Positions 1 to 13,513 of a DNA stretch of 35,184 bases are shown here, in pieces (positions within the stretch are counted from its first letter, which is position 1; every line of letters begins with the position of its first letter). The position numbers and the translations under genes were made by a program. The DNA comes from an uncultured virus (IMG/VR IMGVR_UViG_3300025276_000002) (lineage: Duplodnaviria; Heunggongvirae; Uroviricota; Caudoviricetes): IMG/VR virus record IMGVR_UViG_3300025276_000002. The stretch is one strand, 5' to 3'. The notes below the pieces were generated by a model. That model was not told where the DNA came from, searched no databases, and saw only the letters and a program-made list of their open reading frames with translations.

Positions 1-2
1 TA

Positions 3-317
3 ATGGTAGAGAAACAACTTTGCTTCGGCTGTAATCTATGGGAGGAACGTTTAGAGAAAGATTTCACTAAAGGTAATGTATTCGTCTATAACAGAACAAT
101 GTATTCGATCGGGACATATGGTTTTTCAAAAGAAAAGTATCTAGGTCATGGTGGGACAGTATTTAAGATCACCTATCCTAATGGTAAAGAAGTAGCTAGC
201 AACAATGTTTGGTGTGGTGGCGATTTACCATTATGGTTGACAGAGGGTTTCAAAACGGCTACTATGGAACGGGTGGTAAGTGTGAATGATCTGAACGATG
301 TAAAACACCTTTTGTAA
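3..317 (+). CDS. hypothetical phage protein (may be 5'-truncated by the window edge)
   Basis: 104-aa ORF with a CxxC near the N-terminus, same orientation as the next gene. Confidence 0.6.
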   Translation: MVEKQLCFGCNLWEERLEKDFTKGNVFVYNRTMYSIGTYGFSKEKYLGHGGTVFKITYPNGKEVASNNVWCGGDLPLWLTEGFKTATMERVVSVNDLNDVKHLL

Positions 318-423
318 CGTCAAAATTTTATAAGAATTATTAAGGAGAAAAAAACATGGGTGAGTTAATAAACCTACAAAGAATACAACTTTAGGTTTTA
401 ACCTAGAAACAAAACAGCTAACA

Positions 424-1122
424 ATGAGCAGCAGAGAGATAGCTTCTCTTCTAAACAAGAATCACTCAGATATCAAGCGTAGTGCTGAAAGACTCATAGC
501 ATCTGGAATAATAAACAACGGTCAGCCGTTGGCTGAGTGTGAATTTCAAACCTCTAGAGGAAACAAGTTTACCGAGTACCTATTAGTTAAAAGGGATAGT
601 CTTATTCTTGTAGCTCAAAATAGTCCAGAATTTACAGCACTTATTGTAGACAGATGGCAAGAGCTTGAAAACCAAAGTGAGCCACAGATGACCCAAATGG
701 AGATTATAGCACACAATGCGATGGCGCTAGTAGAGCAAGAGAAACGTATTAACCAAGTTGTACATAATCAAGCTCTACTAGAGGATAAGTTTGAACAACT
801 AAAAGAGAGCACAGCAATACTACCTAAGAGACCAACTAACGCAGAAGGTATTACATTTGTCCGAGCACGTATGCACAAGTTATACAAACTACCACCTCGT
901 GTAGTGAATGAAGTATTGTATAGTTCACCCCATGCACCTAAGCCAGCAGGTCAGGTAAGAAACACACATGAACAAGCAGGAAATGCTACTTACACAGTTT
1001 GGTACACAAGTGATGTATCTAAACTATTCACAAGGTTTGTAGAGGAGTGTGAGTTTGTAACTAAGACGCAAGCTGTACATCCAGACATTGATGGTAGATT
1101 TAAGCTGGTAATAGAATCTTAA
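424..1122 (+). CDS. Rha-family phage regulatory/antirepressor-like protein; natural start probably ATG 356 with a 1-nt indel at 370-372
   Basis: MSSREIA..L.K.H.DI.R and Y.L.KRDSLILVAQ.SPEFTA.IVDRWQELE are typical Rha N-terminal motifs; AGGAG RBS at 343-347 precedes the out-of-frame ATG 356. Confidence 0.85.
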   Translation: MSSREIASLLNKNHSDIKRSAERLIASGIINNGQPLAECEFQTSRGNKFTEYLLVKRDSLILVAQNSPEFTALIVDRWQELENQSEPQMTQMEIIAHNAMALVEQEKRINQVVHNQALLEDKFEQLKESTAILPKRPTNAEGITFVRARMHKLYKLPPRVVNEVLYSSPHAPKPAGQVRNTHEQAGNATYTVWYTSDVSKLFTRFVEECEFVTKTQAVHPDIDGRFKLVIES

Positions 1123-1139
1123 AATTTACAAAATTATTA

Positions 1140-1440
1140 AAGGGTCTTTTTCTAGACCCCCATTTTTTCAGAAAATCTTTATACCCCCATTTTTCAAAGA
1201 CACCATCTTCTTACATAGCCCACCTCTTATAGCCAAGCTCCATAGCCCATTTTCATAGCAAAAATTTTATAGCTGATTTTAAAAGACCCCATCTTCCTAT
1301 ATATTCGAAAGGATCATAAGCTGTTAACATAGGCAAAATTACTACAAAATATTAGAAAGGGTGGTGGGAGTATTAACATAGTCAAAAGTAGTGCTAGTTT
1401 TACAAGAGGGTTAAGTGAAAATATAGACCCGTACCCCCCG
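1140..1440. repeat. non-coding array of short degenerate repeats (ACCCCCATTTTT / GACNCCATCTTC / ATAGCC); possible packaging or terminal-repeat boundary
   Basis: About 9 related units in 1154-1300; AACATAG(G/T)CAAAA twice at about 1326 and 1375; no ORF. Confidence 0.5.
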
Positions 1441-1466
1441 TATGATTCCATCAAATTGTCCAATAT

Positions 1467-1562
1467 AAGCCACTCACAAGCACTCTAAGCAGCGATCGCC
1501 ATATAAGTAATACAATGGCAGCGGGTAGGTTTTAAGACGTCTTAGAATCACATAGAGGAACG
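1467..1562. other. ~96-bp two-armed element 1 (strong-gyrase-site-like)
   Basis: Left arm aagc.actcacaagcactctaagc, right arm cgtcttagaatcacatagagg, AT-rich core, ~10-11-bp phasing. Confidence 0.5.
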
Positions 1563-1603
1563 CATAGCATAGTTGCATAGCAAAGATGTTTATTACAGGC
1601 ATG

Positions 1604-1626
1604 AAAAAGCCCTCAATGGGAGGGCT
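1604..1626 (-). terminator. Rho-independent terminator of the leftward cassettes
   Basis: AGCCCTC-loop-GAGGGCT followed by TTTT on the minus strand. Confidence 0.8.
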
Positions 1627-1644
1627 GGTTACTTTTGATAGTGT

Positions 1645-1833
1645 CTAAAACTCTAACATTGTGCTCTGTCTTAGCTCTTCGCTCCCTAGTTTTTCAATAA
1701 ACCAAAAATATTCATTGCTCCATAAAGGATTAAGAGCAAACCAAGGTGCAGTATAGTAATCACCACCTAGTGTGCGACAATATATTTTAACATCCTGATT
1801 TGATTCTCTTAACTCGTCATAAAGAAGATACAT
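1645..1833 (-). CDS. hypothetical early protein (62 aa)
   Basis: ORF 1645..1848; GAGGAGG RBS favours ATG 1833. Confidence 0.65.
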   Translation of the reverse strand: MYLLYDELRESNQDVKIYCRTLGGDYYTAPWFALNPLWSNEYFWFIEKLGSEELRQSTMLEF

Positions 1834-1844
1834 AAGATCCCTCC

Positions 1845-2114
1845 TCAAAGTGTTTCTAGTTGTGAGCCAATGAACTTAATAACTTGGTTGAATTGTTTAG
1901 TGTCATCAATGTGCGCTGGTAAATCTTCGATCTTGTTGCCGTACACTTGAAACTTAAAAGTGAGTTGATCGCGGTCTGCATTGAACATGTATTCTATTAA
2001 GTTCTCCTCTTCACCTTGAACAAAGATTAATACATTACCATCTTCAATATTTACGTCTAATTGTAATCCGTGCTTTGCTGCAAATGTGTAGTTAGCTTTA
2101 GTAAGCTTTAGCAT
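1845..2114 (-). CDS. hypothetical early protein (89 aa)
   Basis: AGGA RBS and own promoter at 2159-2187. Confidence 0.8.
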   Translation of the reverse strand: MLKLTKANYTFAAKHGLQLDVNIEDGNVLIFVQGEEENLIEYMFNADRDQLTFKFQVYGNKIEDLPAHIDDTKQFNQVIKFIGSQLETL

Positions 2115-2118
2115 TGTG

Positions 2119-2218
2119 TAATTCCTAAATGGTTAAGCAGTATTGCTTCAATAAAGTGATCATCTCATATTCAGATAAGATGATCAACTCTTTTGAGTGA
2201 ATAAAGTTAAAATAGTTT
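2119..2218. repeat. ~100-bp leader/promoter repeat, copy 1 (copy 2 at 2730-2828)
   Basis: taattcctaaatggttaagc.gtattgcttc...gatcatctcatat....taagatgatcaa...aataaagttaaa is shared by both copies. Confidence 0.9.
2158..2187 (-). promoter_or_regulatory. sigma70-like promoter TTGATC-N17-GATGAT with GATC at both hexamers
   Basis: 17-bp spacer, TG extension, inverted repeat TGATCATCT...AGATGATCA. Confidence 0.7.
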
Positions 2219-2261
2219 GAACATTAAAAGCCACCTTTTACAGTGGCCATTACATTTAATA

Positions 2262-2465
2262 TCAATCAAATTCTAGATATAAACAAGATATATCAAGATT
2301 AAGGCTACCTTCAACCTCTTTTAGACTTTCTGTTAATTTCTCTTCAGTTAGATTGAAATTACGCCTTAAGCTATCCCTGAATTGTAAATCTAGTACCATA
2401 CTTAGATGCTTTTCGTGCTGTAAAAACAAGTATAACCCTAGATAGTGTCGCATTTTGTTATCCAT
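2262..2465 (-). CDS. hypothetical early protein (67 aa)
   Basis: AAGGA RBS; flanked by hairpins at 2227-2248 and 2498-2524. Confidence 0.65.
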   Translation of the reverse strand: MDNKMRHYLGLYLFLQHEKHLSMVLDLQFRDSLRRNFNLTEEKLTESLKEVEGSLNLDISCLYLEFD

Positions 2466-2543
2466 ACTACATCCTTAAAAATCTTTTAATTAAAAGTAAA
2501 AGCCCACTAGTCAGAGTGGGCTTTGTTGGTAATGGTTAGTTTA

Positions 2544-2723
2544 TTATAAAATACTATCAATTGATTTAAGTTCTAACGCTGCAATCGCATACTGTGTACC
2601 GTTTGGGTTACGTTCTTGCAGTGACCTAGTAGCGCTTGCTTTGATAGCTTGAATGCCTACTGTGTTAGATTCGTTGATGAACTTAGTAACACATGCGATT
2701 GTTTTAGCAGATAATGTTTTCAT
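2544..2723 (-). CDS. hypothetical early protein, 59 aa (MKTLSAKTIACVTKFINES...DSIL), not in the ORF track
   Basis: Translated by hand; follows leader repeat copy 2 with AGGA RBS. Confidence 0.75.
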   Translation of the reverse strand: MKTLSAKTIACVTKFINESNTVGIQAIKASATRSLQERNPNGTQYAIAALELKSIDSIL

Positions 2724-2729
2724 TGTCGT

Positions 2730-2828
2730 TAATTCCTAAATGGTTAAGCTGTATTGCTTCGATGTATTGATCATCTCATATCTAGCTAAGATGATCAATA
2801 CTTTTCGGTAAATAAAGTTAAATTAGTT
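2730..2828. repeat. ~100-bp leader/promoter repeat, copy 2
   Basis: Direct repeat of 2119-2218. Confidence 0.9.
2769..2798 (-). promoter_or_regulatory. sigma70-like promoter TTGATC-N17-GATGAT with GATC at both hexamers
   Basis: Same architecture as 2158-2187. Confidence 0.7.
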
Positions 2829-3023
2829 GTAATAGTTAGTTAACTTTAAAAAGTTATAATCATTGTTATCTACTAAGATTTTAGCCATTGCGACAGAATC
2901 ACGTTTTAACTTGTATGTAACCTCTTTACATGCTTTTAAATCTTTACCGTTAAAAATGTAAGTAGTATAAGATCCATCTTTATTTTTGTAAGTGTCCAGT
3001 TTAGCTGATTGATAAGTTTTCAT
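2823..3023 (-). CDS. hypothetical early protein (66 aa)
   Basis: AAGG RBS and own promoter at 3077-3105. Confidence 0.75.
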   Translation of the reverse strand: MKTYQSAKLDTYKNKDGSYTTYIFNGKDLKACKEVTYKLKRDSVAMAKILVDNNDYNFLKLTNYYN

Positions 3024-3075
3024 AATGTAAGCCTTAAAATGTAAGTTGTGAAACGTTGTACCGTTCCGATAGAGT

Positions 3076-3105
3076 GATCATCTCATACTTAGATAGGAAG
3101 ATCTA
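3076..3105 (-). promoter_or_regulatory. promoter TAGATC-N17-GATGAT, third copy of the GATC-containing promoter
   Basis: Shares gtgatcatctcata..agata with copies 1 and 2; GATC at 3076 and 3100. Confidence 0.65.
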
Positions 3106-3141
3106 CTATTAAATGCACTTTATTTTAAATTAATTTCTAAT

Positions 3142-3669
3142 TGATAATAGTTATCATCCACCAGCCTCATGCATATATTGATCAGCCTGTCAACATTTTA
3201 TTATTGCCCAGCGTACTATTGATTCAAAGTCAACATAGGCTAAAACGTCCTGTAAGTGATTCTAAGAGGCGATCGGTTTTACCTTAGTGTTAGTATTAAA
3301 ACAAAAAGATCTCTTCATCTGGTAGATCGGACAATAGTTGGCACACTGTTTGCTTAGTTAAATTAGTTATTGATAATCATTATCATCTAGATGCTTAGCA
3401 TGTTTAGCTTGTGAATTGTAGTAATAATTAAGCATATGTATATAACAAACCGTTCTATGTGATTAATTGAAAACGTGCTAGGCTTATCACTCGTTAGATC
3501 TACCATTTGCTAATTGGTATTGATAATTATTCTCAAGTAAGCAGATAAGACTTATTCTCATTTGCAATTGATGGCTATTCTCATTTGTAGTTGTTGAGAA
3601 GAGATCGCATTTGATATCAATTCTCATCTAGAGTTAATGATAACTATTTGCATTTGATATTGATTATCA
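3142..3669. promoter_or_regulatory. Fur-box array 1 (about 9 boxes of the 7-1-7 type)
   Basis: Perfect TGATAATcATTATCA at 3371-3385; 13/14 matches at 3142, 3521 and 3655; further degenerate boxes at 3546, 3569, 3595, 3612 and 3638. Confidence 0.8.
3241..3325. other. two-armed element 2 (strong-gyrase-site-like; right arm weak)
   Basis: taaaacgtcctgtaagtgattctaagaggcg; gtgattctaaga is the reverse complement of the right arm of element 1. Confidence 0.45.
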
Positions 3670-3700
3670 TTTAGAAAATAAAAGCAAGCAAGTTGAGAAT

Positions 3701-3763
3701 TGAAAACCGTTTGACTTTCCCAGTTTTACTATAGATGCTCTGGGGATTTTTCGATCTAGGGTG
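3701..3763 (+). repeat. conserved module-end motif, copy 1 (copy 2 at 13381-13447)
   Basis: TGAAAA-N4-TTGA-N7-AGTTTTACTA-N5-GCTCTGG..TTTT..CTAGGGTG, first ~45 nt in the same register in both copies. Confidence 0.8.
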
Positions 3764-3853
3764 GTCACGATCTAAGGCCAGTTGTAAAACAGCTTGTAAA
3801 ATCCATCAGCCAATGCTACCATTCAATAATCAATTAACTAATAAGGATCAACT

Positions 3854-4111
3854 ATGCTAGAATCAATCAAGAAGACGTTCAACAAACTAGGCTTTAAACA
3901 TCGTCATTATGAGCCACCAGCCAAGCCACGTTGGACTGTAAAGCCATTAGGCAAGGGTTATATCTATTATCAAGATAAGCCAGTCACAAAGCTTTCTGTG
4001 AGCTATTACAGATATACAGGAAATTCATTTAATAATAAGATGTTTAAAGAGATTGAGGCTGTAGCTAGAACGGGTCAAGTACTATTTAAAGGTTATGTAT
4101 CATTTAAGTAA
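3854..4111 (+). CDS. hypothetical protein (85 aa, basic)
   Basis: TAAGGA RBS upstream. Confidence 0.75.
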   Translation: MLESIKKTFNKLGFKHRHYEPPAKPRWTVKPLGKGYIYYQDKPVTKLSVSYYRYTGNSFNNKMFKEIEAVARTGQVLFKGYVSFK

Positions 4112-4160
4112 TTACATGGCCTTACAGCCCAGCACAACAACGATTAAGAGGTATTAGACA

Positions 4161-4250
4161 ATGAGTGGAACACTAGCAGGCGTATTAATATACATTGTAG
4201 CAATATTAGCTATATTACTATTAGTTAAAAATGGGAAGGGTGAACTATGA
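4161..4250 (+). CDS. small single-TM peptide, 29 aa (MSGTLAGVLIYIVAILAILLLVKNGKGEL)
   Basis: GAGG RBS; ATGA overlap with the next gene. Confidence 0.6.
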   Translation: MSGTLAGVLIYIVAILAILLLVKNGKGEL

Positions 4251-4471
4251 AGCGTAGAAAGGTAGAGACAGATCAATTATATGTCAGACTTACAAAGGAT
4301 GTTTCATATGCTAAAGATTTTACAAAAGATCGTTGGTATCCTGTGACTACATGTGACGGCATTTGTGGGCGCATAATTGATAACAGAGGTCTAACATACT
4401 TGTTAGATCTTGATATTATTAAATCCAACATAGTAACGTGGGAATATAAAACAATAAAGGTGACACCATGA
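4247..4471 (+). CDS. hypothetical protein (74 aa)
   Basis: ATGA-coupled on both sides. Confidence 0.7.
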   Translation: MKRRKVETDQLYVRLTKDVSYAKDFTKDRWYPVTTCDGICGRIIDNRGLTYLLDLDIIKSNIVTWEYKTIKVTP

Positions 4472-4557
4472 AGCGTAAGATCCAATTAACGTTAATATGG
4501 CTGGCTGTATTGAGCTTTCCAGCTATGATGATACTATGTGAACTATTAAGCAAGTAA
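4468..4557 (+). CDS. small hydrophobic peptide, 29 aa (MKRKIQLTLIWLAVLSFPAMMILCELLSK)
   Basis: ATGA overlap and AAGGTG RBS. Confidence 0.55.
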   Translation: MKRKIQLTLIWLAVLSFPAMMILCELLSK

Positions 4558-4564
4558 TATCTAA

Positions 4565-4839
4565 TAAGCCCTTGCATACATTGTTGAGGGCTGTTACACT
4601 TTAAGCACACCAACCGAGAACGGTTTAAAACTTCCATGTTACGTATCTGCTTACTAGAACGGACTAACTCAACACGGGGCGGCTGCCTATCTTATAAGCT
4701 GGAAAGGATCGGATCTCCCTGAAACCTTGTGGTCCTGAGACTTGCCCATTGCAGCGGTCTGTTATAATGGCCTTTGTGAATTAGGTTACCAAGTTCCCTA
4801 TCCAGTGATCTAATATTTATCCTTTGTCATTAATCTATG
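4565..4839 (-). ncRNA. candidate ~270-nt non-coding RNA
   Basis: Near-consensus promoter at 4846-4874, GC-richer body with no credible ORF, terminator-like hairpin AGCCCT...AGGGCT at about 4567-4592. Confidence 0.5.
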
Positions 4840-4845
4840 TGTTAC

Positions 4846-4874
4846 ATTGTATAGATCTCTGACTTCCTTGTCAA
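4846..4874 (-). promoter_or_regulatory. sigma70 promoter TTGACA-N17-TACAAT (GATC just upstream of -10)
   Basis: Direct reading of the minus strand. Confidence 0.85.
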
Positions 4875-4892
4875 TAGATTATTTTAAATTAA

Positions 4893-5069
4893 TTAGAATC
4901 TCCTTAATTGTTTAGCTATCACTTTAACTCGTCTTAGTCCTAGTCCTGATACATAACTTGCAGTTTTATAGCTACCACCATATGACAGGGCAAATATCGC
5001 TAGTCTTTGCATCTTACCTGTATTCCTGTTGTAGTTTTGTTGGCTTCTTCTTGGTTTTATAAAAATCAT
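4893..5069 (-). CDS. small basic protein with a probable HTH, 58 aa (…SYKTASYVSGLGLRRVKVIAKQLRRF), not in the ORF track
   Basis: AGGAG RBS; HTH-like pattern in the C-terminal half. Confidence 0.65.
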   Translation of the reverse strand: MIFIKPRRSQQNYNRNTGKMQRLAIFALSYGGSYKTASYVSGLGLRRVKVIAKQLRRF

Positions 5070-5081
5070 GTTGTAAACTCC

Positions 5082-5393
5082 TTAGTTATAATCTGTGTTT
5101 AACATCTCTGCTTCTATTTCCGCCCTGATACCTTGTGCATCTAGGCTGTCATAATATTCATTTTCTGCAAGCACTTCTTCAGGTGTTTGAGGCCAATCAT
5201 CTCTATCAATATAATCCATAAAGGCTATACTAGGATCTAGAAACTCCTCAATAAAATAAGCAACCCAATCAATACGTGACTTGATGCCCTCTTCATCTCC
5301 ATTCCTGACCAACTCTGGAATCTCTTCCATTGATTTCTTTATACCTAACATAACTCGGTAAGATATTGGTTTTAAAAATTCTCCATAGCTCAT
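5082..5393 (-). CDS. acidic hypothetical protein (103 aa)
   Basis: ATGA overlap with the upstream gene; GAGGG RBS. Confidence 0.75.
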   Translation of the reverse strand: MSYGEFLKPISYRVMLGIKKSMEEIPELVRNGDEEGIKSRIDWVAYFIEEFLDPSIAFMDYIDRDDWPQTPEEVLAENEYYDSLDAQGIRAEIEAEMLNTDYN

Positions 5394-5962
5394 ATTTTGC
5401 CCTCTCTTTTTAATTTGTCATATTCATACTGATCAGGATCATAAGTTTTGAGATTTAACTCTTCGCCTTTATGTCTCCACAAATGATCCTGCCAATGCTC
5501 TCTTATAAATTGTTCTGCCATAATCCTTAACTGTATAGTGGGGGATGATGAGAAAACAACAACGTTATTAACTTGCTTACTTACTCCAGATCTAGCCTCT
5601 ATAAGTATTGGATAAATTCCCGATAGTTGATCAGCCATCTTCTTTAAAGTCTTAGGTGTGCAATGCAAATTCTTTGTTAATGCTATCGGCTTTCTAACCT
5701 TAATAAGTGTAATAAGTAGAAATCTTAAACCCTGCAAGCTTTTGTACTGTGTCTTAGGATAACTAGCCTTATACTTCTTGATCATCTGGTCTGCTATTCC
5801 AACTCTTATTGAGTCCCATTCCCCGTATTCCATTGCGGTGTAGCTCGATTGCAGCCCCTGCTTACTGTTATATTTTAACCCTGATTTGGGACTCCTTTTG
5901 CCGTCAACAAGTATCATATCTTCCCCCCTTAGTTGCTGATCCGAGATTTCTAAGATTTCCAT
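5390..5962 (-). CDS. basic hypothetical protein, possibly a winged-helix DNA-binding protein
   Basis: 190 aa; PIALTKNLHCTPKTLKKMADQL resembles an HTH, followed by beta-strand-like segments. Confidence 0.6.
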   Translation of the reverse strand: MEILEISDQQLRGEDMILVDGKRSPKSGLKYNSKQGLQSSYTAMEYGEWDSIRVGIADQMIKKYKASYPKTQYKSLQGLRFLLITLIKVRKPIALTKNLHCTPKTLKKMADQLSGIYPILIEARSGVSKQVNNVVVFSSSPTIQLRIMAEQFIREHWQDHLWRHKGEELNLKTYDPDQYEYDKLKREGKI

Positions 5963-6021
5963 GCATAGAACTATAATACTATACCATAGTAATCTTAATA
6001 TTTAATATACATACCATACGA

Positions 6022-6050
6022 AGTATACATACAGATATTGCATACGTCAA
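6022..6050 (-). promoter_or_regulatory. sigma70 promoter TTGACG-N17-TATACT
   Basis: Directly upstream of the 5962-to-4893 operon. Confidence 0.7.
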
Positions 6051-6196
6051 CACTTAATAGATCTATAGTAATGGTAATCTTAATAGTAATGGTAATAGCT
6101 ATCATTTGTATGCTTGTTTGTATGCCATATTATATAGTTGATAATGTCAACCTTACTTGAGGTTTGGAAGGGGATTCTCCCCCTCCCAACTCCCTT

Positions 6197-6321
6197 GATC
6201 TAGTCTATGTATTGATCTGGATAGTGCGATCTATGGCAGGTAGTATAGTATGCAGATGATCTATGTATGTAAGTTGTGTATGGTGATCTGTACAGTATGC
6301 GTATAATGATCTGTATGATCT
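6197..6321 (+). repeat. cluster of seven co-oriented GATCT sites in a GT-skewed non-coding tract
   Basis: GATC at 6197, 6214, 6228, 6258, 6285, 6308 and 6317, plus 6060 and 6539. Confidence 0.8.
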
Positions 6322-6420
6322 GTTGTATGTATTGTATTATCTATATTTTAGATTGATAAGTAAGTATTGATTGATTAATTAGATATGTATATTAGTCTAT
6401 GATTATCTAGTGTATCATAT

Positions 6421-6518
6421 AAGCTCTTCAATAAGCCTGTAAGCTGTTTAATTATCTACCCAATAGGGTTACTTAGGTTAATAGGTTTAAATCGGTTACA
6501 GGCTGGCTATGGGGCTTG
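6421..6518. other. two-armed element 3 (strong-gyrase-site-like)
   Basis: aagc...agcctgtaagc ... gttacaggct...gcttg; the arms agcctgtaa and ttacaggct are exact inverted repeats. Confidence 0.55.
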
Positions 6519-6616
6519 TATGTTTGATTGTGTTAGTTGATCTGGGTTGTATTGTCTGTGTAACTATGTTGCTATATTAAATAAGTAATAGACTGTTGTT
6601 GTCTATTACTCTTTTA

Positions 6617-6874
6617 TTAGTCTAGTCTGTTTAATCTGTAAAGACATATATCTGTCTCACAGTATGAATTGCCTTCTAGGTACTGAACTACTAATTTAAA
6701 GCCTTGGCTTATTTCTACCAGTCTATACCCTGTCACACCTTCTTCTATTATGTGTTGATAATAATCTTTGAACCAAGATGATTCTATTAAGGATGTCATA
6801 CTATGGTGATCTGTGTATTTTATGTATAGATCTGTGTAATCATCTTTGTATTTTCCTGCACTTATTATGTACAT
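6617..6874 (-). CDS. hypothetical early protein (85 aa)
   Basis: GAGGG RBS. Confidence 0.75.
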   Translation of the reverse strand: MYIISAGKYKDDYTDLYIKYTDHHSMTSLIESSWFKDYYQHIIEEGVTGYRLVEISQGFKLVVQYLEGNSYCETDICLYRLNRLD

Positions 6875-6940
6875 TTATTTGCCCTCTTGTTAGGTTAGAT
6901 ATATGACAGACCTTTTATGATCTGTCATTGTGTTATTAGT

Positions 6941-7138
6941 TTAACTTAATAAATATTTAACTAAATGATCTTTTACTTGGTTAATCTTCCATTGTTGACC
7001 ATCAAAATAGACCTTGTAAGTGCCGTGGGTGGTTTTTAGTATTCTAAATGAGACACCACAATGTGAAATCATATTAACTGATTTTGGATTACGTCTAGTT
7101 GCACGTTTGCATAATTTTAAGATTGTTGATTCTTTCAT
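6941..7138 (-). CDS. hypothetical early protein (65 aa, basic)
   Basis: AAGGTG RBS. Confidence 0.7.
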   Translation of the reverse strand: MKESTILKLCKRATRRNPKSVNMISHCGVSFRILKTTHGTYKVYFDGQQWKINQVKDHLVKYLLS

Positions 7139-7202
7139 ATTATCACCTTGTGATTAGTTGGTTATAATGGTCTGCTCGTTAACACTCACAGATCATTTTT
7201 GT

Positions 7203-7580
7203 TTAGTATTCTTTTAATTTATCTTCAAGCTCTTTGATTCTGGCAAGTTCACCAGTTTTTGCATTATAGCGTAAGCCTCTGCTGATATCAAGTACAAAGC
7301 GGGGTGTGTATATTGCTGCAAAGATGATTACAACACCTATAAGCGCTTCGAATAGTACACCATCTGAACGTAAAAGACTAGAAACAGCGATAATAAAAAA
7401 CGTCACTAGTGCTAAAAGAAAACCACCTAATAAATAACTAGTCCAGCAGCTTACACCAGCCCTGTTAATCAGTATAAACTTATCTGATCTGGTCCAATGT
7501 CGCATAAGTCCGATCAATACATACCCTGACAGTATGACTGTTACTAGTCCAATTACTAAGTTAAAAGCTAATTCATTCAT
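7203..7580 (-). CDS. membrane protein with 3 predicted TM helices
   Basis: Three hydrophobic stretches; AGGG RBS; own promoter. Confidence 0.8.
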   Translation of the reverse strand: MNELAFNLVIGLVTVILSGYVLIGLMRHWTRSDKFILINRAGVSCWTSYLLGGFLLALVTFFIIAVSSLLRSDGVLFEALIGVVIIFAAIYTPRFVLDISRGLRYNAKTGELARIKELEDKLKEY

Positions 7581-7642
7581 AATTATATTTCCCCTATTTT
7601 TATTTAATCTGCTAATACGTTATTGCTTAGCCAGTAACCGCT

Positions 7643-7671
7643 ATATTATAGATCACTGACTAAGGTGTCAA
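7643..7671 (-). promoter_or_regulatory. sigma70 promoter TTGACA-N17-TAATAT (GATC just upstream of -10)
   Basis: Direct reading of the minus strand. Confidence 0.7.
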
Positions 7672-7700
7672 CACTCTATATCAATTAATTTGCATTTAGT

Positions 7701-8111
7701 TTATAAAATTGTAATACCGTTTAAATGATCTATTTCATGTTGTACACAATAGCTTAGTAATCCTTTGCAATTCTTTTTGATTGGTTGCCAATTACGATCA
7801 AAACCTTCAACCGTGATCATCTCATCCCTTTTTAATGTGGCCTGTCTTGAAGGGAATGATAGACAGCCCTCCTTTGAGATCTTTAGCTTGCCACCCTTAC
7901 GAGTGATCACGGGGTTTATAATTTCAGTTCTAAAGCCTTGCACGTTTACAACTATTACTCGGATAGTTAATCCAACTTGGTTCGCAGCAAGTCCGATCCC
8001 TTTTGACGTATCCATTAGAGAAAACATACCATTTATGATCTGACTAATATCTGTCCCTTTCTCTACCTCAGTAGATGTTTGTTTCAGTGTATCATGTGTT
8101 AATTGTAGCAT
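7701..8111 (-). CDS. def: peptide deformylase, short phage type
   Basis: All three PDF motifs are present: GIGLAANQVG, EGCLS and HEIDH. Confidence 0.97.
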   Translation of the reverse strand: MLQLTHDTLKQTSTEVEKGTDISQIINGMFSLMDTSKGIGLAANQVGLTIRVIVVNVQGFRTEIINPVITRKGGKLKISKEGCLSFPSRQATLKRDEMITVEGFDRNWQPIKKNCKGLLSYCVQHEIDHLNGITIL

Positions 8112-8116
8112 TTTTT

Positions 8117-8200
8117 AAGCCTCTCTAAGCGTTTATAATCTATTACCTATACAATCGCCCTAGTAAAAATATTTAAATCAATCCTAGGACTACTACAGGT
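8117..8200. other. two-armed element 4 (strong-gyrase-site-like)
   Basis: aagcctctctaagcgttt ... cctaggactactacagg. Confidence 0.45.
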
Positions 8201-8205
8201 ACATA

Positions 8206-8382
8206 TTATCCAATTAACCAGCTAATTCTGAATACTCGTAACCAGTCTAAAACTATTAATATAACCAAGCTTACAGGGATAAATGCGAACATGCAAGTTT
8301 TGATTACATTTTCAACCTTGTGCATAGTTGATTGAGTTTTCATGTACTGTTCAGTACGTTTTGAGTAAAATTGTTTAGTCAT
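8206..8382 (-). CDS. small protein with a C-terminal TM helix, 58 aa (MTKQFYSKRTEQY...SWLIG), not in the ORF track
   Basis: Translated by hand; fills the cassette between def and 8466. Confidence 0.6.
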   Translation of the reverse strand: MTKQFYSKRTEQYMKTQSTMHKVENVIKTCMFAFIPVSLVILIVLDWLRVFRISWLIG

Positions 8383-8465
8383 TATCTCGGCCTATTATTT
8401 GAATATTATCTCTTAAGGAATAACCCGCATATTACAGGCTATTAATTTAAAAGTAAAGCTTTTAT

Positions 8466-8738
8466 TTAAAGACTCTTTTCAAAGTACCAACCAACTAAAT
8501 TGTCCAGTCTGTACACTGAGCTGTCAAAGTTCATGGCATCATTAATGAGGTAGTTGTTAATACCCTTCAGCTTGATATAAAAACTAATAAATTTACCTGT
8601 ATTAGTCATATAAATTTTATAACCTTGGTTTTTACCATTTACATGAAAATGTGCCTTTTTACCTGTCCAAATGTTAGACCCTGTTATTCTCATATCGGGT
8701 GCCGCCTCATAAGTCTGTACTATAATTTCTGTTTTCAT
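8466..8738 (-). CDS. hypothetical early protein (90 aa)
   Basis: AGGTG RBS; immediately downstream of the tRNA. Confidence 0.75.
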   Translation of the reverse strand: MKTEIIVQTYEAAPDMRITGSNIWTGKKAHFHVNGKNQGYKIYMTNTGKFISFYIKLKGINNYLINDAMNFDSSVYRLDNLVGWYFEKSL

Positions 8739-8761
8739 AATATCACCTGTTTATTGAAAGT

Positions 8762-8838
8762 TGGTACACTGTATAGGATTCGAACCTATAACCTAGACGG
8801 TAGAAACATCTTGCTCTATCCAGTTGAGCTAACAGCGC
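8762..8838 (-). tRNA. tRNA-Arg(UCU) with encoded CCA
   Basis: GCGCTGT TA GCTC AACTGGATA GAGC A AGATG TTTCTAC CGTCT AGGTT ATAGG TTCGAAT CCTAT ACAGTGT A CCA forms a full cloverleaf. Confidence 0.95.
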
Positions 8839-8909
8839 TTTGTAAATTGCTTTGTTAAGATGTAATCATTGTTACATAACTACATCAAGAAAACAACTAT
8901 TAATTTTAA

Positions 8910-9113
8910 TTATTCTTCACTTTCTAACAACTTGATCTCTTCATCCAATTCACGGATCATCTTTTCACATTCTACAATCTTACCAACTAGGTAGCCTTGC
9001 CCGTGTTCGCATGTGTTATCCTCTAACTTTTGTTCAAGTCGTGTTAACTCTTCAAACTCATTTGATAACGCTTGGCGTGCTTCTGTTAAGTTAATCATAA
9101 TTTTAAACCTCAT
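8910..9113 (-). CDS. small acidic coiled-coil protein (start may be ATG 9098)
   Basis: Heptad pattern; own promoter at 9129-9159. Confidence 0.75.
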   Translation of the reverse strand: MRFKIMINLTEARQALSNEFEELTRLEQKLEDNTCEHGQGYLVGKIVECEKMIRELDEEIKLLESEE

Positions 9114-9128
9114 TGTTTAACTTGTTTG

Positions 9129-9161
9129 TAGTGTAGCGGCTAACGTTGGGAGCTGTCAACC
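9129..9161 (-). promoter_or_regulatory. promoter TTGACA-N18-TACACT; 30-bp repeat with 11617-11646
   Basis: tgtagcgg(c/t)taacgttgggagctgtcaacc, one mismatch between copies. Confidence 0.8.
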
Positions 9162-9172
9162 TCTTTTAGTGT

Positions 9173-9328
9173 TTAATTTAATAAATAAGCGTTTAAGTAT
9201 TGAATACTAACTATATTTTGAATGCCTACTTTATCAGCCTTAATTTTAACATTCTCTTCATTTTCGGCACCTATTACACATTGCACGGCTTTAAAATTAT
9301 CCATGTAAATAACCATGTAAGCTTTCAT
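9173..9328 (-). CDS. hypothetical early protein, 51 aa (MKAYMVIYMDNFKAVQCVIGAENEE...)
   Basis: GAGG RBS; upstream leader resembles 11942-12003. Confidence 0.7.
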   Translation of the reverse strand: MKAYMVIYMDNFKAVQCVIGAENEENVKIKADKVGIQNIVSIQYLNAYLLN

Positions 9329-9450
9329 AATTTAACCTCAATTTGTTTACGTGGCTAACACCTTGCTAGCCAGTGATTAAATAGTAATGCAGCTTGATTT
9401 GTATTGCAACCTTTTATTATAAATAATTGCAATTAATTTTAATACCTTTT

Positions 9451-9547
9451 TAAACGTCCTGTAATAGACTGTGATTAATTTAAATCGTTATCTATGCAAT
9501 TGCACTAATGAATAATTAAAGCCGTTTTGGTGCGCTGTGACAGCTTG
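9451..9547. other. two-armed element 5 (strong-gyrase-site-like), overlapping the 3' end of ORF 9505-9786
   Basis: taaacgtcctgtaatagactgtga ... gcgctgtgacagcttg. Confidence 0.5.
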
Positions 9548-9786
9548 TGATTACCTATCACCTTTACAACTTTAGCGTAAATGGTAGCAGGGTTTAAGTT
9601 TATATTATTTACATCGATGATCAATGATCCGTGATATTCCAAAACTGCATCAATACCATCAAAGTTTGTATAAAGTTCTGTCTTGATAGTTTCAAGTAAG
9701 CTATGTTCTACAATGTAATCATACATATTTTCAGTAAATGTAATAGTGTATTCTTTGCCTGTTAGTTTAATATCATTTGTTGCCAT
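9505..9786 (-). CDS. hypothetical early protein (93 aa)
   Basis: AAGGAG RBS. Confidence 0.75.
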   Translation of the reverse strand: MATNDIKLTGKEYTITFTENMYDYIVEHSLLETIKTELYTNFDGIDAVLEYHGSLIIDVNNINLNPATIYAKVVKVIGNHKLSQRTKTALIIH

Positions 9787-9958
9787 CTCTTAAACTCCTT
9801 AAATATTGCATTTGTTGCCACTCTGGATCATCATCCATTTGATCATTAATAACGCTTGACAATGTTTTGGTGATGCTTGGATCATTCTGTCGCTGTTGCA
9901 AGTGTACCAAATAATTCAGATGATCCTTACATACTTTTAATGCAGTTTGTTTACTCAT
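9773..9958 (-). CDS. hypothetical early protein (61 aa)
   Basis: Short overlap with the next gene. Confidence 0.65.
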   Translation of the reverse strand: MSKQTALKVCKDHLNYLVHLQQRQNDPSITKTLSSVINDQMDDDPEWQQMQYLRSLRDGNK

Positions 9959-10022
9959 AGATTGCGGCCTGTGCTAGTGAAAATAAAAGGCGGATAGTTC
10001 ACCGCCACAAAAGGGGGGTTAT

Positions 10023-10457
10023 TTATTCTTCATCACAATCAAAATCTGTCTGATCTAAGTGTTCGCTTAATTGTTCTTGTACGTCTGCATACATTGCATA
10101 AAAAGCTAATGCTTGATGTAAACCGTTTAAACCATCATTTTTAATAATATCGGCTAAACTGTCACCGCAAAGGATGCCATGATCAATAGCATAATCTGAA
10201 TTGGTAGAGTGTTTAAGTATATCTAAATGATAATGATAATAAATTGCGTATTGACTACCGTCCACTATTTCATGTAATAGGCTATCATTTGCCAGATCTT
10301 CTATTTCATCCCTATCAAAACTGATTTGATCACAATCTAGAGCTTCATTAATTGCATAGATAACGCTATCAGTTAAAGATAACACCGCTTGATGGTAGTT
10401 AAAATCAGTGTTTAAGTTTTCAACGTTTTCATAAGATACAGATTTTAAAGTTTTCAT
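10023..10457 (-). CDS. highly acidic Ocr (T7 gp0.3)-like putative DNA mimic / anti-restriction protein
   Basis: LHEIVDGSQYAIYYHYHLDIL recalls the Ocr segment IHMAADNAVPHYYADIF; D/E-rich with an acidic tail; early location. Confidence 0.6.
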   Translation of the reverse strand: MKTLKSVSYENVENLNTDFNYHQAVLSLTDSVIYAINEALDCDQISFDRDEIEDLANDSLLHEIVDGSQYAIYYHYHLDILKHSTNSDYAIDHGILCGDSLADIIKNDGLNGLHQALAFYAMYADVQEQLSEHLDQTDFDCDEE

Positions 10458-10570
10458 AATATTCACTCTTTTTAAATGGTGGCATAATTGCCTGTTAATA
10501 ATAAAAACCGCTTTAGCGGCCTTGTTAAGATGTGCTCAGTATATAACTAAACACACCAACAAAGCAAGCT

Positions 10571-10969
10571 TTAATTTAAGTTATTCTCTAACTCTTCTAA
10601 CTCTTCCGTAAGTCCAGCTATTTCTTTTTCTAACTCTTCGACCTCAGATTCTAGATCAATATATTCGTCTAAATTCATAATATCAAAACTATCAGCAAAA
10701 TCATTTAAACCGCAACGAAACATAACAGGATCATGCTTTTGCATTAAGTCCGATGCATATTCACCACATAGAAATTCACCACATAGAAATTCTATATCGT
10801 CTAGATGATCCTCGTAATGTCCATTTAGCATTGCCTCATAATCACTTGTAATAACATCTTCGAAGTGTGACAGAGGATCATTAGTCATAGATTTGATTGC
10901 AGCCTTGGCGTTAATTAGGTGATCATTGTTAATGATGATAGTTTTGCGAATTTCTGATAATGTAGTCAT
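10571..10969 (-). CDS. highly acidic early protein with a C-terminal coiled coil
   Basis: YxxxLDD...GEYASxLxxxDPxxFRCGxNDFxDS pattern; D/E-rich; GAG RBS before ATG 10969. Confidence 0.75.
   Translation of the reverse strand: MTTLSEIRKTIIINNDHLINAKAAIKSMTNDPLSHFEDVITSDYEAMLNGHYEDHLDDIEFLCGEFLCGEYASDLMQKHDPVMFRCGLNDFADSFDIMNLDEYIDLESEVEELEKEIAGLTEELEELENNLN
10759..10792. repeat. 15-bp in-frame tandem duplication (EFLCG x2)
   Basis: attcaccacatagaa attcaccacatagaa attc. Confidence 0.95.
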
Positions 10970-11070
10970 AATAATATCTCTTTTAAAATGTAATTTGCCG
11001 TTAGTGGCGTTTTGTTTCAATAAGGTAATTCTACTTTATACAGTTTACGCTGTCAACACTTTATTTTGAA

Positions 11071-11229
11071 TTAATCGTTTTCTTTTTCAAACTCTACAAA
11101 TTGATCTGCCCGTTTATTCGCCCTATCTGCTTGCATTGCTAGATCTTGGCCCTTGCGTGTACGTTTGCGATCAATTCGTACCGTTTTAGCTGTGTTTTTT
11201 GTTCGTTTCATTGGTGATACTCTACCCAT
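11071..11229 (-). CDS. small basic protein (52 aa, MGRVSPMKRTK...)
   Basis: AAGGA RBS before ATG 11229; the upstream part of the track ORF is a hairpin. Confidence 0.65.
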   Translation of the reverse strand: MGRVSPMKRTKNTAKTVRIDRKRTRKGQDLAMQADRANKRADQFVEFEKEND

Positions 11230-11305
11230 TTCAATCCATCCTTTTAAATCGTTATTGTGTAGCCCTGTGAGCTGTTTAAACGTCACAAGGCTGTCATTGT
11301 ATTAG

Positions 11306-11572
11306 TTAAGCGATTACTGCCACTCTAGCCGCTATAGAACGCTTGTGAGTCACTACTATAGCCGAGCCGTGAACATTAAAAGCTAGTGATTGAACTTTAG
11401 CAGGTTTTGAAGGAGCTTGCAATGTGTTTGTTTTAATAACCTTGTGAGCTAACCAAGATCCGCAACCATCTTTCCCGCTTGTAGACTTGAAAAGCTTTTT
11501 ACCTGTGCATAGGTTAACACGTTTAACAAAAGTTCGCATCTGTTGGCGGGTAGAGAATTTTAATGTATTCAT
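11306..11572 (-). CDS. basic hypothetical early protein (88 aa)
   Basis: AAGG RBS; own promoter. Confidence 0.75.
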   Translation of the reverse strand: MNTLKFSTRQQMRTFVKRVNLCTGKKLFKSTSGKDGCGSWLAHKVIKTNTLQAPSKPAKVQSLAFNVHGSAIVVTHKRSIAARVAVIA

Positions 11573-11613
11573 AATGTAATACCTTTTAATAATATAATTT
11601 TTGATTGAGTGTT

Positions 11614-11646
11614 AATTGTAGCGGTTAACGTTGGGAGCTGTCAACC
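11614..11646 (-). promoter_or_regulatory. promoter TTGACA-N18-TACAAT
   Basis: Second copy of the 9132-9161 repeat. Confidence 0.8.
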
Positions 11647-11659
11647 GCTTTTTTGGTGT

Positions 11660-11920
11660 TTATTTTAAAGATATAATCTTTAATTCCCAGTTACCTGTCC
11701 CGTGTAAAGATCTGATTAAGTCAGGGCGATCCCTCAGTAGCTGGCCATTACCGAGCTTTTCTGATAAAATTTTAAATTTCATATCATCGGCTATAGACTT
11801 AAAGTCTGCACTGTCAGGTACTATTTTATAGTTAACTATACTCCCGTTAGGATCAATCAAGCAGACTTTACAAGAAAAACCACCAACCACAACGCCGTTA
11901 ACATCTTCGAAAGTTTGCAT
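11660..11920 (-). CDS. hypothetical early protein (86 aa)
   Basis: TAAGG RBS. Confidence 0.75.
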   Translation of the reverse strand: MQTFEDVNGVVVGGFSCKVCLIDPNGSIVNYKIVPDSADFKSIADDMKFKILSEKLGNGQLLRDRPDLIRSLHGTGNWELKIISLK

Positions 11921-12004
11921 AATAAAACCTTATTCTTAAAAGTGGCTAACCCGTTGCCAGCCAGTTATTAAATTTTAATCCAAGTAGATTATAATTGCAA
12001 GTGT

Positions 12005-12136
12005 TTATTTAAAACTCTTTTCAAACTCTTGTAAAGTTAACCCGTTAAACACATGTTCAACTATTTCTGATTGTGTTGCAACTTCAAAAACCCAACCATC
12101 ACGGCATATATGCCAAACGTTGTCTATCTTTTTCAT
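12005..12136 (-). CDS. hypothetical early protein, 43 aa (MKKIDNVWHICRDGWVFEVATQSE...)
   Basis: AGGGG RBS; own leader hairpin. Confidence 0.65.
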   Translation of the reverse strand: MKKIDNVWHICRDGWVFEVATQSEIVEHVFNGLTLQEFEKSFK

Positions 12137-12214
12137 AATAAAACCCCTTTAAATAGTGGCTCCCTGTGAGCCGATGAATACTAATATACAGTGTTATAAT
12201 TTAAACGCAAGCTT

Positions 12215-12439
12215 TTATTTAATTAAATGTGAAATTAATTTATCCTGTTTGATAACATTTGCTAAATTATCACATACATGCGTAACCATGTGGCCCTGTG
12301 GCGAACGTGAACAGGTGTAAAAGTAACAGTGATCATAGTTTTGGTAATGTTCACTGTTTGCACCGTTGTAGCATTGTGCGAGGTTAAACCTGTCTATAAT
12401 ATAAGACACCTGATCATAAGTTGGATTAATCTGTTTCAT
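12215..12439 (-). CDS. hypothetical early protein (74 aa)
   Basis: AAGG RBS before ATG 12439. Confidence 0.7.
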   Translation of the reverse strand: MKQINPTYDQVSYIIDRFNLAQCYNGANSEHYQNYDHCYFYTCSRSPQGHMVTHVCDNLANVIKQDKLISHLIK

Positions 12440-12550
12440 AATATAAAGCCTTTGTTTAAGTTGTTTCAATACGTATAAAGGTACACTATTTTTAAACTAT
12501 TGAAAACAATTTTATTAAAGAATTATTTTTAATAATATTGGTGATCTTTG

Positions 12551-12580
12551 TTGACAGGGTAAAACGTTTGTTTATATAAT
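12551..12580 (+). promoter_or_regulatory. promoter TTGACA-N18-TATAAT (divergent from the leftward cassettes)
   Basis: Consensus hexamers. Confidence 0.85.
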
Positions 12581-12623
12581 AGCGGTACACAAACAGAGAA
12601 TATTATTTAAAAGGGTAAAGATT

Positions 12624-12791
12624 ATGTTTATTATGAAAAGTAGTTTTAAGTATGCATCACCTGTAGCGGGTTATAATGATGTAAAGCTTTTAGAATCGAT
12701 TGGTGTAGAAGGTATTAAAGTTTTACCTAATGCAGAGGCAGTTTTAACAAGGTTGGTTAATAGTGATTATTTACCTACAGGTCAATATTAA
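12624..12791 (+). CDS. hypothetical protein, 55 aa (MFIMKSSFKYASPVAG...PTGQY)
   Basis: AAGGG RBS; consensus promoter upstream; hairpin downstream. Confidence 0.7.
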   Translation: MFIMKSSFKYASPVAGYNDVKLLESIGVEGIKVLPNAEAVLTRLVNSDYLPTGQY

Positions 12792-12842
12792 ATTAATCAA
12801 CAAAAGCCCTTGCAATTTAAAGTGTAAGGGCTTATAGTTCGT

Positions 12843-12933
12843 AACAGATAACAGGTTAGAAGGCGGCTCGGCAGATAACGCAAACTTAAGTTTAAAGCTC
12901 TTGGAATCAATAGAGAGTGGGCGATATTCTGTT
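12843..12933 (+). ncRNA. candidate ~90-nt structured RNA A
   Basis: Promoter TTGCAA-N17-TATAGT (12810-12838); 5' AACAGA pairs with 3' TCTGTT; internal hairpins; no ORF. Confidence 0.45.
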
Positions 12934-12960
12934 AATGTAAATGATTATCAATAACCTAAT

Positions 12961-13055
12961 CAAGCGTCCTGTAACCGATCCTGAGCCTTTTAATAATAAT
13001 CTAATGCAATGACCTATCTATCTAACTAAGGCCCGTTACAGCCGCTTACAGCTTG
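12961..13055. other. two-armed element 6 (strong-gyrase-site-like)
   Basis: caagcgtcctgtaaccgatcctgagc ... gcccgttacagccgcttacagcttg. Confidence 0.55.
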
Positions 13056-13133
13056 TTATATTTGATTTAAATTAATTACAAATAAATTGTATAAACCGCT
13101 TGCACTATTCGACAAGATCTATATACTTGGTTA

Positions 13134-13240
13134 TATCAGCTTAAAGCTGAAAGTCTCCCAAACCACACGGGCAGCGCTTCCCTTTAACGTCCAAATGATT
13201 TAATCATTTTCAGGAGGAATGAAGGGTGGGCGATCGCCAG
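13134..13240 (+). ncRNA. candidate ~100-nt structured RNA B
   Basis: Promoter TTGCAC-N16-TATACT (13100-13127); hairpin TCAGC-TTAAA-GCTGA; stem CGCTTCCCTT/AAGGGTGGGCG. Confidence 0.4.
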
Positions 13241-13380
13241 TAAACAAGATTAATTCTCATTTACAAAGCTAAACTATTCTCGTTTACAAAGTTAAATCTA
13301 AATGATAGCTAATCGCATTAGCATTCCAGCGTAATGAGAATGATTCTCATTTAAGTCAGAATTTTACTGATTCTGGAAAC

Positions 13381-13447
13381 TGAAAATGAATTGAGATTTT
13401 GAGTTTTACTAAGATCGCTCTGGCAAATTTTTATGTACCCTAGGGTG
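13381..13447 (+). repeat. conserved module-end motif, copy 2
   Basis: Aligns with 3701-3763 without gaps over the first ~30 nt and shares GCTCTGG and CTAGGGTG. Confidence 0.8.
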
Positions 13448-13484
13448 TGATTTGTGGGCAGATCCAGATTAGGTGATTTTGTTG

Positions 13485-13513
13485 TTGACAGAAAATCACA
13501 ATTAAATTATATT
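13485..13513 (+). promoter_or_regulatory. promoter TTGACA-N17-TATATT starting the rightward block
   Basis: Near-consensus; -35 sits inside the inverted repeat GTGATTTT...AAAATCAC. Confidence 0.8.

Follow-up and report, generated by a model that had tools for sequence, protein, structure and literature searches.

Fur-type boxes clustered in the early non-coding DNA of an uncultured marine phage

Results

A gene-free tract between divergent early operons

The stretch of DNA analysed here, referred to as the window, spans 35,184 nucleotides and is part of a 75.2-kb IMG/VR record of an uncultured marine phage (IMGVR_UViG_3300025276_000002; CheckV completeness, 78%). A 446-aa ATPase of this phage shows 51% identity to its counterpart in Shewanella phage KASIA and 46% to that of Colwellia phage 9A, both siphoviruses, and the early non-coding DNA is in part similar to that of Pseudoalteromonas phage H101. 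Replication and transcription genes include those for a single-subunit RNA polymerase, a primase/helicase, a Dda-like helicase and a DNA polymerase; thymidylate synthase, DHFR, several HNH and homing endonucleases and a peptide deformylase are also encoded. Three HNH/homing endonuclease genes (17345-18178, 19775-20572 and 21594-22313) lie among nucleotide-metabolism genes, and a tRNA-Arg(TCT) is found at 8762-8838. A 36-nt repeat, the copies of which (9132-9167 and 11617-11652) are 94% identical, reads on the minus strand as a TTGACA promoter for leftward early genes.

Leftward early genes end at position 3023 and rightward genes begin at 3854. The largest ORFs within the tract separating these divergent early operons, hereafter module 1, encode 39-48 aa, and none of them has a Pfam match; moreover, the 48-aa ORF has lost its start codon in a related contig, L078. 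The tract can therefore be considered gene-free, as had been proposed from a first reading of the sequence alone. An Rfam search over positions 2400-4200 yielded nothing meaningful, and a tRNA search of module 1 found none. A leftward small RNA candidate (3375-3285) was discarded because its predicted folding was no better than that of shuffled sequences (z = 0.86). Genome-wide k-mer enrichment was dominated by coding bias. As for the neighbouring proteins, one of 190 aa has no relatives among metagenome contigs and one of 85 aa has none in the phage collection. Many of the early ORFs are of no known function. The features of module 1 are listed below.

3024 to 3853, no strand: module 1, gene-free tract of 830 nt (from ORF lists; no Pfam match for the small ORFs)
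3057 to 3103, minus strand: promoter-like palindromic element upstream of a leftward gene, with copies at 2140-2192 and 2751-2803
3142 to 3156, no strand: Fur-type box 1, TGATAATAGTTATCA, 13/14 in the motif scan, in the place of a DnaA box in H101
3246 to 3320, plus strand: conserved non-coding element extending from CGTCCTGTAAG to AGATCTCTTCA (repeat family D7)
3371 to 3385, no strand: Fur-type box 2, perfect TGATAATCATTATCA in the motif scan; 17/19 to the classical 19-mer at 3366-3384
3512 to 3672, plus strand: tandem array of 27-nt core units at 48, 43 and 43 nt, containing seven 7-1-7 sites (repeat family D1)
3690 to 3745, plus strand: conserved 3' element TTGA..AGTTTTACTA..GCTCTGG, also present in module 2, with a similar element in H101

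Number and quality of the Fur-type sites

The consensus for Fur binding is a 7-1-7 inverted repeat, TGATAATnATTATCA, also represented as a 19-nt sequence made of three hexamers. The sequence-only reading had counted about nine matches to the core of this motif in some 530 bp, with a perfect site at 3371 and near-perfect ones at 3142, 3521 and 3655. The motif scan confirmed this picture: TGATAATNATTATCA is matched perfectly at 3371 and at 13 of 14 positions at the other three locations, and the nine sites consist of the boxes at 3142 and 3371 plus seven in the interval 3521-3669, five of the nine being weak (2-4 mismatches). Sites with at most one mismatch to TGATAATNATTATCA number four in the whole 75-kb record, all of them inside 3142-3669. 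When two mismatches are allowed, the 35-kb window contains 7 sites versus 0.72 expected; the maximum in shuffled sequences was 4 and none of 100 shuffles reached 7. The local background was assessed by first-order Markov simulations of module 1 itself, hence AT-matched (n = 500). Not one of the 500 simulations attained the observed counts, whether of four sites with at most one mismatch or of six with at most three, and the same was true at two mismatches. The density that had been claimed thus exceeds what an AT-matched background would produce.

The seven sites of the array, said to be 17-26 bp apart, are indeed spaced by 25, 23, 26, 17, 26 and 17 nt going from 3521 to 3655. Their quality is uneven: mismatches to TGAKAATNATTMTCA amount to none at 3521, two at 3546, three at 3569, four at 3595, two at 3612, three at 3638 and one at 3655. 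The half-sites in this phage come in two variants, TGATAAT and TGAGAAT. In the phage units, the extension TCATTT[G/A]CA is more uniform than in bacterial sites, where TTT is found beside 8 of 64 half-sites, and could mark a binder other than Fur. At the position of box 1, the relative L078 carries a poorer box, CGATAACTATTCTCA. The match at 3366 is the best in module 1 to the 19-mer. Secondary matches with four mismatches are found at offsets of 3 or 6 nt from the strong sites (3142/3145, 3365/3371/3374, 3515/3521 and 3655/3661), in part because of the hexamer repeat itself. Overlapping sites and a 3- or 6-nt offset pattern are also described for clusters of Fur sites (Chen 2007, PMC2189734).

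A unit of 43-48 nt containing two sites is repeated in tandem about 3.5 times to form the array, which is in part the result of a recent tandem duplication. The contig of a relative (mollusc metagenome, run X3) matches positions 3334-3500 and 3636-3784 and has 20 other letters instead of the 135 nt at 3501-3635; hence, the copy number of the array is not strictly conserved. Such tandem copies, and a relative's contig without those 135 nt, are what one would expect if the repeats were a functionless by-product of duplication. We regard this explanation as highly improbable, since the boxes at 3142, 3371 and 13335 (the latter in module 2, see below) are isolated and not tandem copies, the palindromes are perfect and the boxes recur in unrelated phages.

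Promoters and other conserved elements

Scanning of the array for promoter-like sequences returned 9 weak matches versus 9.9 expected from shuffles and no strong one, in line with the initial impression that the sites overlap no obvious promoter. Boxes 1 and 2 are overlapped by weak promoter-like matches only (9/12). Canonical sigma-70 promoters are found elsewhere, for example at 12551 and 13485. As no convincing promoter overlaps the boxes, promoter occlusion of the classical Fur type is not evident.

Each of the small leftward genes is preceded by a promoter-like palindrome, TTGATCATCT..AGATGATCAA (2140-2192, 2751-2803 and 3058-3110), that is conserved in H101, in the TARA contig L092 and in L078. 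One possible reading of this element is TTGATC-17-GATGAT plus a TG extension. Searching metagenomes with the pattern of this element produced 117 loci, two of which (L078 and L092) are true relatives; the same pattern identified only H101 in viral contigs, where the pattern of the 3' element gave four chance matches. The element AACGTCCTGTAA.. occurs three times in the window (3246-3320, 9452-9475 and 12962-12985) and is found in either orientation in H101. Clustering of GATC sequences was considered as a sign of an origin and rejected, the enrichment spanning the whole early region and not module 1 specifically.

A second module

A region paralogous to module 1 was identified some distance to the right. 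Its features are the following.

12840 to 13545, plus strand: module 2, paralogous gene-free module upstream of a rightward early/middle operon (identified by alignment)
12936 to 12950, no strand: weaker box TGTAAATGATTATCA, two mismatches in the motif scan
13253 to 13296, plus strand: two 23-nt direct repeats ATTCTCATTTACAAAGCTAAACT, each a half-box with its extension (TRF, 1.9 copies, 90% matches)
13335 to 13349, no strand: perfect palindrome TGAGAATGATTCTCA, a G-variant Fur-type box from the motif scan

Modules 1 and 2 share the element beginning with CGTCCTGTAA, the 23-nt direct repeats ATTCTCATTTACAAAG and the 3' element AGTTTTACTA..GCTCTGG. In both, the start of a box is separated by 68 nt from the start of GTTTTACTA (3655 to 3723 in module 1, 13335 to 13403 in module 2). 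A degenerate version of the pattern detects five sites with at most one mismatch in this phage, all of them within the two modules.

Resemblance to bacterial Fur operators

The exact sequence TGAGAATNATTCTCA was scanned over one genome per bacterial species. The scan returned at least 121 loci, 80 of them with flanks, and Pfam was run on the 96 ORFs starting within 350 nt on either side of these 80 loci, gene classes being assigned by hand. In 32 of the 80 loci listed, the sequence lies just upstream of an iron or metal gene, a raw count obtained without a control pattern. Among the 32 are genes for Plug (TonB-dependent receptor; 5 loci), FTR1 permease (4), Fur itself (3), ZnuA (4), FbpA-like binding proteins (5) and ECF sigma factors (3), as well as single loci with FecR, FecCD, Peripla_BP_2, HemS, HbpS, Haem_bd, Ferritin and Rubrerythrin. 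A strict count, in which the binding-protein and sigma classes are omitted, leaves 24 of the 80 loci listed. Three of the listed loci belong to Alteromonadales related to the likely hosts (Thalassotalea, Cognaticolwellia and Paraglaciecola). A crude test placed 31 of the 80 listed sites inside an open frame of at least 120 aa.

Judging from this genomic context, the G-variant TGAGAAT palindrome behaves as a real Fur-family operator, and both half-site variants, TGATAAT and TGAGAAT, match operators of this family. The Fur-type identity assigned in the sequence-only reading thus gains support from the 32 bacterial loci and from the recurrence of the boxes in unrelated phages of Fur-bearing hosts. 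Two arguments against Fur had been entertained. The one based on the TGAGAAT variant was dropped in view of the position of the palindrome upstream of iron and metal genes. The one based on the extension, TTTGCA, is weakened by the fit of this sequence to the third hexamer of the 19-nt box (F-x-R-R) and by its recurrence in T5, in coliphage PD06 and in the viral contig L446.

Position relative to a presumed terminal repeat

Contig depth was examined in two sequencing runs in which the phage is present and which possibly represent its source sample. In run X1, the depth is 19.7 over positions 1-6325 of the window (one 14.7-kb contig) versus 10.4 over positions 6784-12627; the second run shows a similar, noisier drop. 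Since contig depth is about twofold over positions 1-6325, module 1 probably sits inside a long terminal repeat, approximately 2.3-3.1 kb from its presumed end. Module 2 lies outside this presumed repeat. The depth falls in a second gene-free tract, with the following coordinates.

5963 to 6616, no strand: tract devoid of genes, containing GATCT(A/G)T repeats (eight) and a motif rich in G/C; depth falls about twofold here

This tract is the probable end of the terminal repeat. A motif near 6170-6190, ggggattctccccctccc, and the GATCT(A/G)T repeats resemble the terminal-repeat boundary of KASIA, the repeat of which measures 6,912 bp according to its description (PMC8541194). By analogy, the layout would resemble that of T5, in which pre-early genes directed leftward are followed by a divergent region without translated sequence, then by genes directed rightward and by a repeat-rich tract across the repeat end.

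DnaA boxes in the homologous modules of relatives

Homologous modules exist in H101 (KR534323; L018 3440-3700 and, on the reverse strand, L022 1700-1100) and in the TARA contig L092, each carrying four perfect DnaA boxes. The modules of both also contain about eight TGTTAAC repeats, and one of the DnaA boxes occupies exactly the position of the Fur-type box at 3142. A search for the DnaA box TTATNCACA in module 1 and module 2 found none. Fur-type sites with at most one mismatch number one in the 132 kb of H101, zero in KASIA and two, isolated, in 9A. As KASIA and 9A are close relatives at the protein level and do without the array, the latter is not needed by the whole group. A tract of KASIA (L023) that spans the terminal-repeat boundary contains, at 6625-6710, four direct repeats of AGTTTCTGCACCC just upstream of the leftward operon.

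DnaA boxes accompanied by TGTTAAC repeats, as found in the homologous modules of H101, constitute a classical origin layout, and module 1 is itself repeat-rich and AT-rich. One could thus imagine that the module is a replication origin, with iteron-like repeats set in AT-rich DNA of a divergent intergenic region. We find this improbable given that neither module has a DnaA box, that no initiator gene was found nearby, that there are two modules and that the sites are irregularly spaced (17-26 nt). Furthermore, the DnaA boxes of the T5 terminal repeat are not considered an origin in a preprint on that phage (Davison, 10.1101/866236, section 3.3.3). The presence of DnaA boxes in the H101 and L092 homologues argues that modules of this kind do recruit host proteins.

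The same boxes in other phages

In the genome of T5 (AY587007, 121.7 kb), all sites with at most one mismatch are located in the terminal repeats, at 233, 9579 and 9614 and at the corresponding copies in the right repeat. The sites at 9579 and 9614 fall within palindromes G and I, in copies 3 and 4 of direct repeat C, and belong to Repeat Region 3, defined as direct repeat C copies 1-4 and palindromes E, G, H and I in the left terminal repeat. The site at 233-247, a perfect TGATAATCATTATCA, is inside the coding sequence of the pre-early gene dmp. Direct repeat C/palindrome units of the TGAGAATCATTATCA type are present in the window phage as in T5. In the Davison preprint (10.1101/866236), the shear point of first-step transfer is calculated at 9618 and the region is put forward as a candidate injection stop signal; DnaA boxes are covered there, and Fur and iron have no occurrence. 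This region is conserved in 637 phage records, and its units are still recognisable, as TGCGAATCATTCTCAttcgca, in three T5-like phages that have diverged. A tblastn comparison of 17 T5 terminal-repeat proteins with the 75 kb of the record gave nothing below E = 0.1. In particular, A1 and A2 had no match in these 75 kb, about 7.7 kb of the presumed repeat being outside the record.

A further example is provided by the coliphage vB_vPM_PD06 (NC_052653; 12.5 kb), in which five boxes occupy about 110 nt of gene-free DNA. More generally, IMG/VR was scanned for two perfect boxes 2-30 nt apart; the scans returned at least 122 and 91 loci, and at least 164 loci were examined. Three or more sites, and up to 14, are present in 99 of the at least 164 loci listed, and 153 of 164 listed arrays lie outside any open frame of at least 100 aa. 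For listed contigs of 30 kb or more, a hand count placed 19 of 40 loci in the terminal tenth of the contig. Very regular non-coding arrays of 7-14 perfect Fur-type boxes were seen in the uncultured viral contigs L454, L519, L388 and L529, an example being the eight copies of cttatTGAGAATGATTCTCAttatc near the end of a 96.8-kb contig. A scan of viral contigs with AAATGAGAATCATT gave mostly single chance matches. These phages have the motif in common, and hosts that possess Fur, but no phage protein that could be detected as shared. Our literature search, from which subscription journals were largely absent, found no account of a Fur-box array in a lytic phage.

These comparisons bear on the possibility that the boxes are operators or iterons of a DNA-binding protein made by the phage, such as a pre-early regulator or a replication initiator, and that their likeness to Fur sites reflects convergence or mimicry. 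This protein would follow the pattern of plasmid Rep proteins, which bind palindromes as dimers and direct repeats as monomers. The direct repeats do share an extension past the 7-1-7 core, ATTCTCATTT[G/A]CAA, many of the early ORFs are functionally unassigned, and related phages hold other repeats in the same type of tract (TGTTAAC in H101, AGTTTCTGCACCC in KASIA). Differing repeats among relatives are what co-evolving phage proteins would produce. However, the core with its extension is also found in T5, PD06 and many uncultured phages, and the window phage has no homologue of a T5 terminal-repeat protein; the extension can be accommodated as hexamer three of the 19-nt Fur box, and the two half-site variants are those of Fur-family operators. 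Furthermore, a search of the surroundings of the modules for Rep, helix-turn-helix or Fur-like proteins found none, and only a Rha-like protein lies at 424-1122. We consider a phage-encoded binder unlikely. Across the 75 kb, no gene of the Fur family was found.

Discussion

The Fur-type sites of module 1 occur far beyond chance expectation, match genuine Fur-family operators and recur in analogous DNA of unrelated phages. The initial description of the feature was accurate as to the sites; it had overlooked module 2, the fact that the array arose by tandem duplication and the existence in H101 of a version with DnaA boxes. We propose that module 1 is a cis-acting array of host Fur operators, placed on early-entering phage DNA, where it would pause or anchor that DNA or gate it according to iron. 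We give this reading, which is built on sequence comparisons, about an even chance. Binding of Fur, the location in a terminal repeat and every functional step are what we infer, and the model that follows is to be read in that light.

Upon entry of the DNA into an iron-replete cell, Fe(II)-Fur dimers would load onto the strong boxes at 3142, 3371, 3521 and 3655 and, in module 2, onto that at 13335. Fur would then spread across the weaker units between the strong boxes. The outcome would be that some 150 bp separating the divergent early operons become a nucleoprotein block. This block might work in cis, pausing or anchoring the phage DNA in the course of its entry, as proposed for the T5 repeats; alternatively, it might act as an iron-dependent gate on early transcription. 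In neither case would it act at a classical Fur-repressed promoter.

The model could be extended by supposing that Fur serves as a host-factor checkpoint on the first-entering DNA of phages with long terminal repeats, and that H101 and, in part, T5 use DnaA likewise. Iron-loaded Fur would polymerise along the array and hold or gate the incoming genome, so that injection and the early programme depend on the iron state of the cell. With DnaA filling this role in sister lineages, one module could be exchanged for another as a landing pad for a host protein. In this general form the idea is unlikely.

The sequence-only reading had put first a DNA sponge, the other options being an iron-dependent roadblock or anchor. 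As phage DNA multiplies, the boxes of a sponge would draw Fur away from host operators, so that iron uptake and iron-sparing functions of the host are derepressed to the benefit of the iron enzymes of the phage. Multicopy Fur boxes do titrate Fur, as seen in the FURTA assay, and the phage carries roughly ten or more boxes per genome unit, distributed over two modules. It also encodes, as had been stated, a peptide deformylase (7701-8111, minus strand); a link between this enzyme and the array is pure speculation. On the other hand, the arrays of T5 are in first-entering DNA, beside the injection pause, and the same may hold here; a location of this kind points to a role at single copy and not to a sponge that depends on copy number. 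T5-type phages are characterized by early shut-off and degradation of host DNA, and derepression of host genes would be futile if the window phage degraded host DNA early as they do. Finally, relatives manage without the array. The sponge therefore fits the context less well than a cis-acting element of early-entering DNA, and we think it quite unlikely.

A cis-acting array of Fur operators would have implications beyond this phage. The injection pause of T5 has been known for decades and, to our knowledge, has no accepted cause; Fur would be a concrete and easily tested host candidate. The boxes are present in this marine phage, in coliphages from two further families and in at least 164 loci of uncultured viruses, which suggests that non-coding phage DNA commonly recruits Fur. 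In much of the ocean, bacterial growth is iron-limited, and the outcome of infection would thus be coupled to iron supply by any phage element able to read or perturb Fur. Lastly, the swap between Fur-type and DnaA boxes at homologous positions amounts to a natural experiment on the host needs of the modules.

Comparison with known systems

The closest parallel to bacterial Fur operators and Fur site clusters (Chen 2007, PMC2189734) lies in the 7-1-7 inverted repeat, the three-hexamer layout and the overlaps of 3 or 6 nt; T and G variants both occur at position 4 of the half-site. Unlike those operators, the phage boxes overlap no recognisable iron-gene promoter, nine sites in 530 nt plus a second module are far above what is typical of an operator, and the carrier is a lytic phage.

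With H101 and L092, the window phage shares the flanking promoter-like elements, the CCTGTAAG..AGATCTC element, a similar 3' element and the location of the first host-factor box, which is at the same position after AAATTAATTTC. The difference resides in the boxes themselves, four perfect DnaA boxes and TGTTAAC repeats replacing the Fur-type boxes. Coliphage PD06 is phi92-like, and its units, TGATAATGATTCTCAtttacaaa, match the ATTCTCATTTACAAAG of module 2; this E. coli myovirus has no detectable relation to the window phage outside the array.

The array also resembles Repeat Region 3 of T5, a phage with two-step DNA transfer. Both are untranslated, repeat-rich early DNA associated with a long terminal repeat, which is only presumed in the window phage. 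The units of T5, aaaTGAGAATCATTATCATTTGCA, and those of the window phage, TGATATTGATTATCATTTAG and ATTCTCATTTGCAA, are of the same sequence type, and all sites with at most one mismatch in either genome lie within early, repeat-associated DNA. The T5 array differs in that it closes the repeat and adjoins DnaA boxes and the 7.9% nick, whereas that of the window phage is separated from the presumed repeat end by about 2.3-3.1 kb and has divergent operons on its two sides, in which respect it resembles T5 Repeat Regions 1 and 2. The window phage also differs in having no DnaA box in its modules and no match to A1/A2, and in carrying module 2 outside the presumed repeat.
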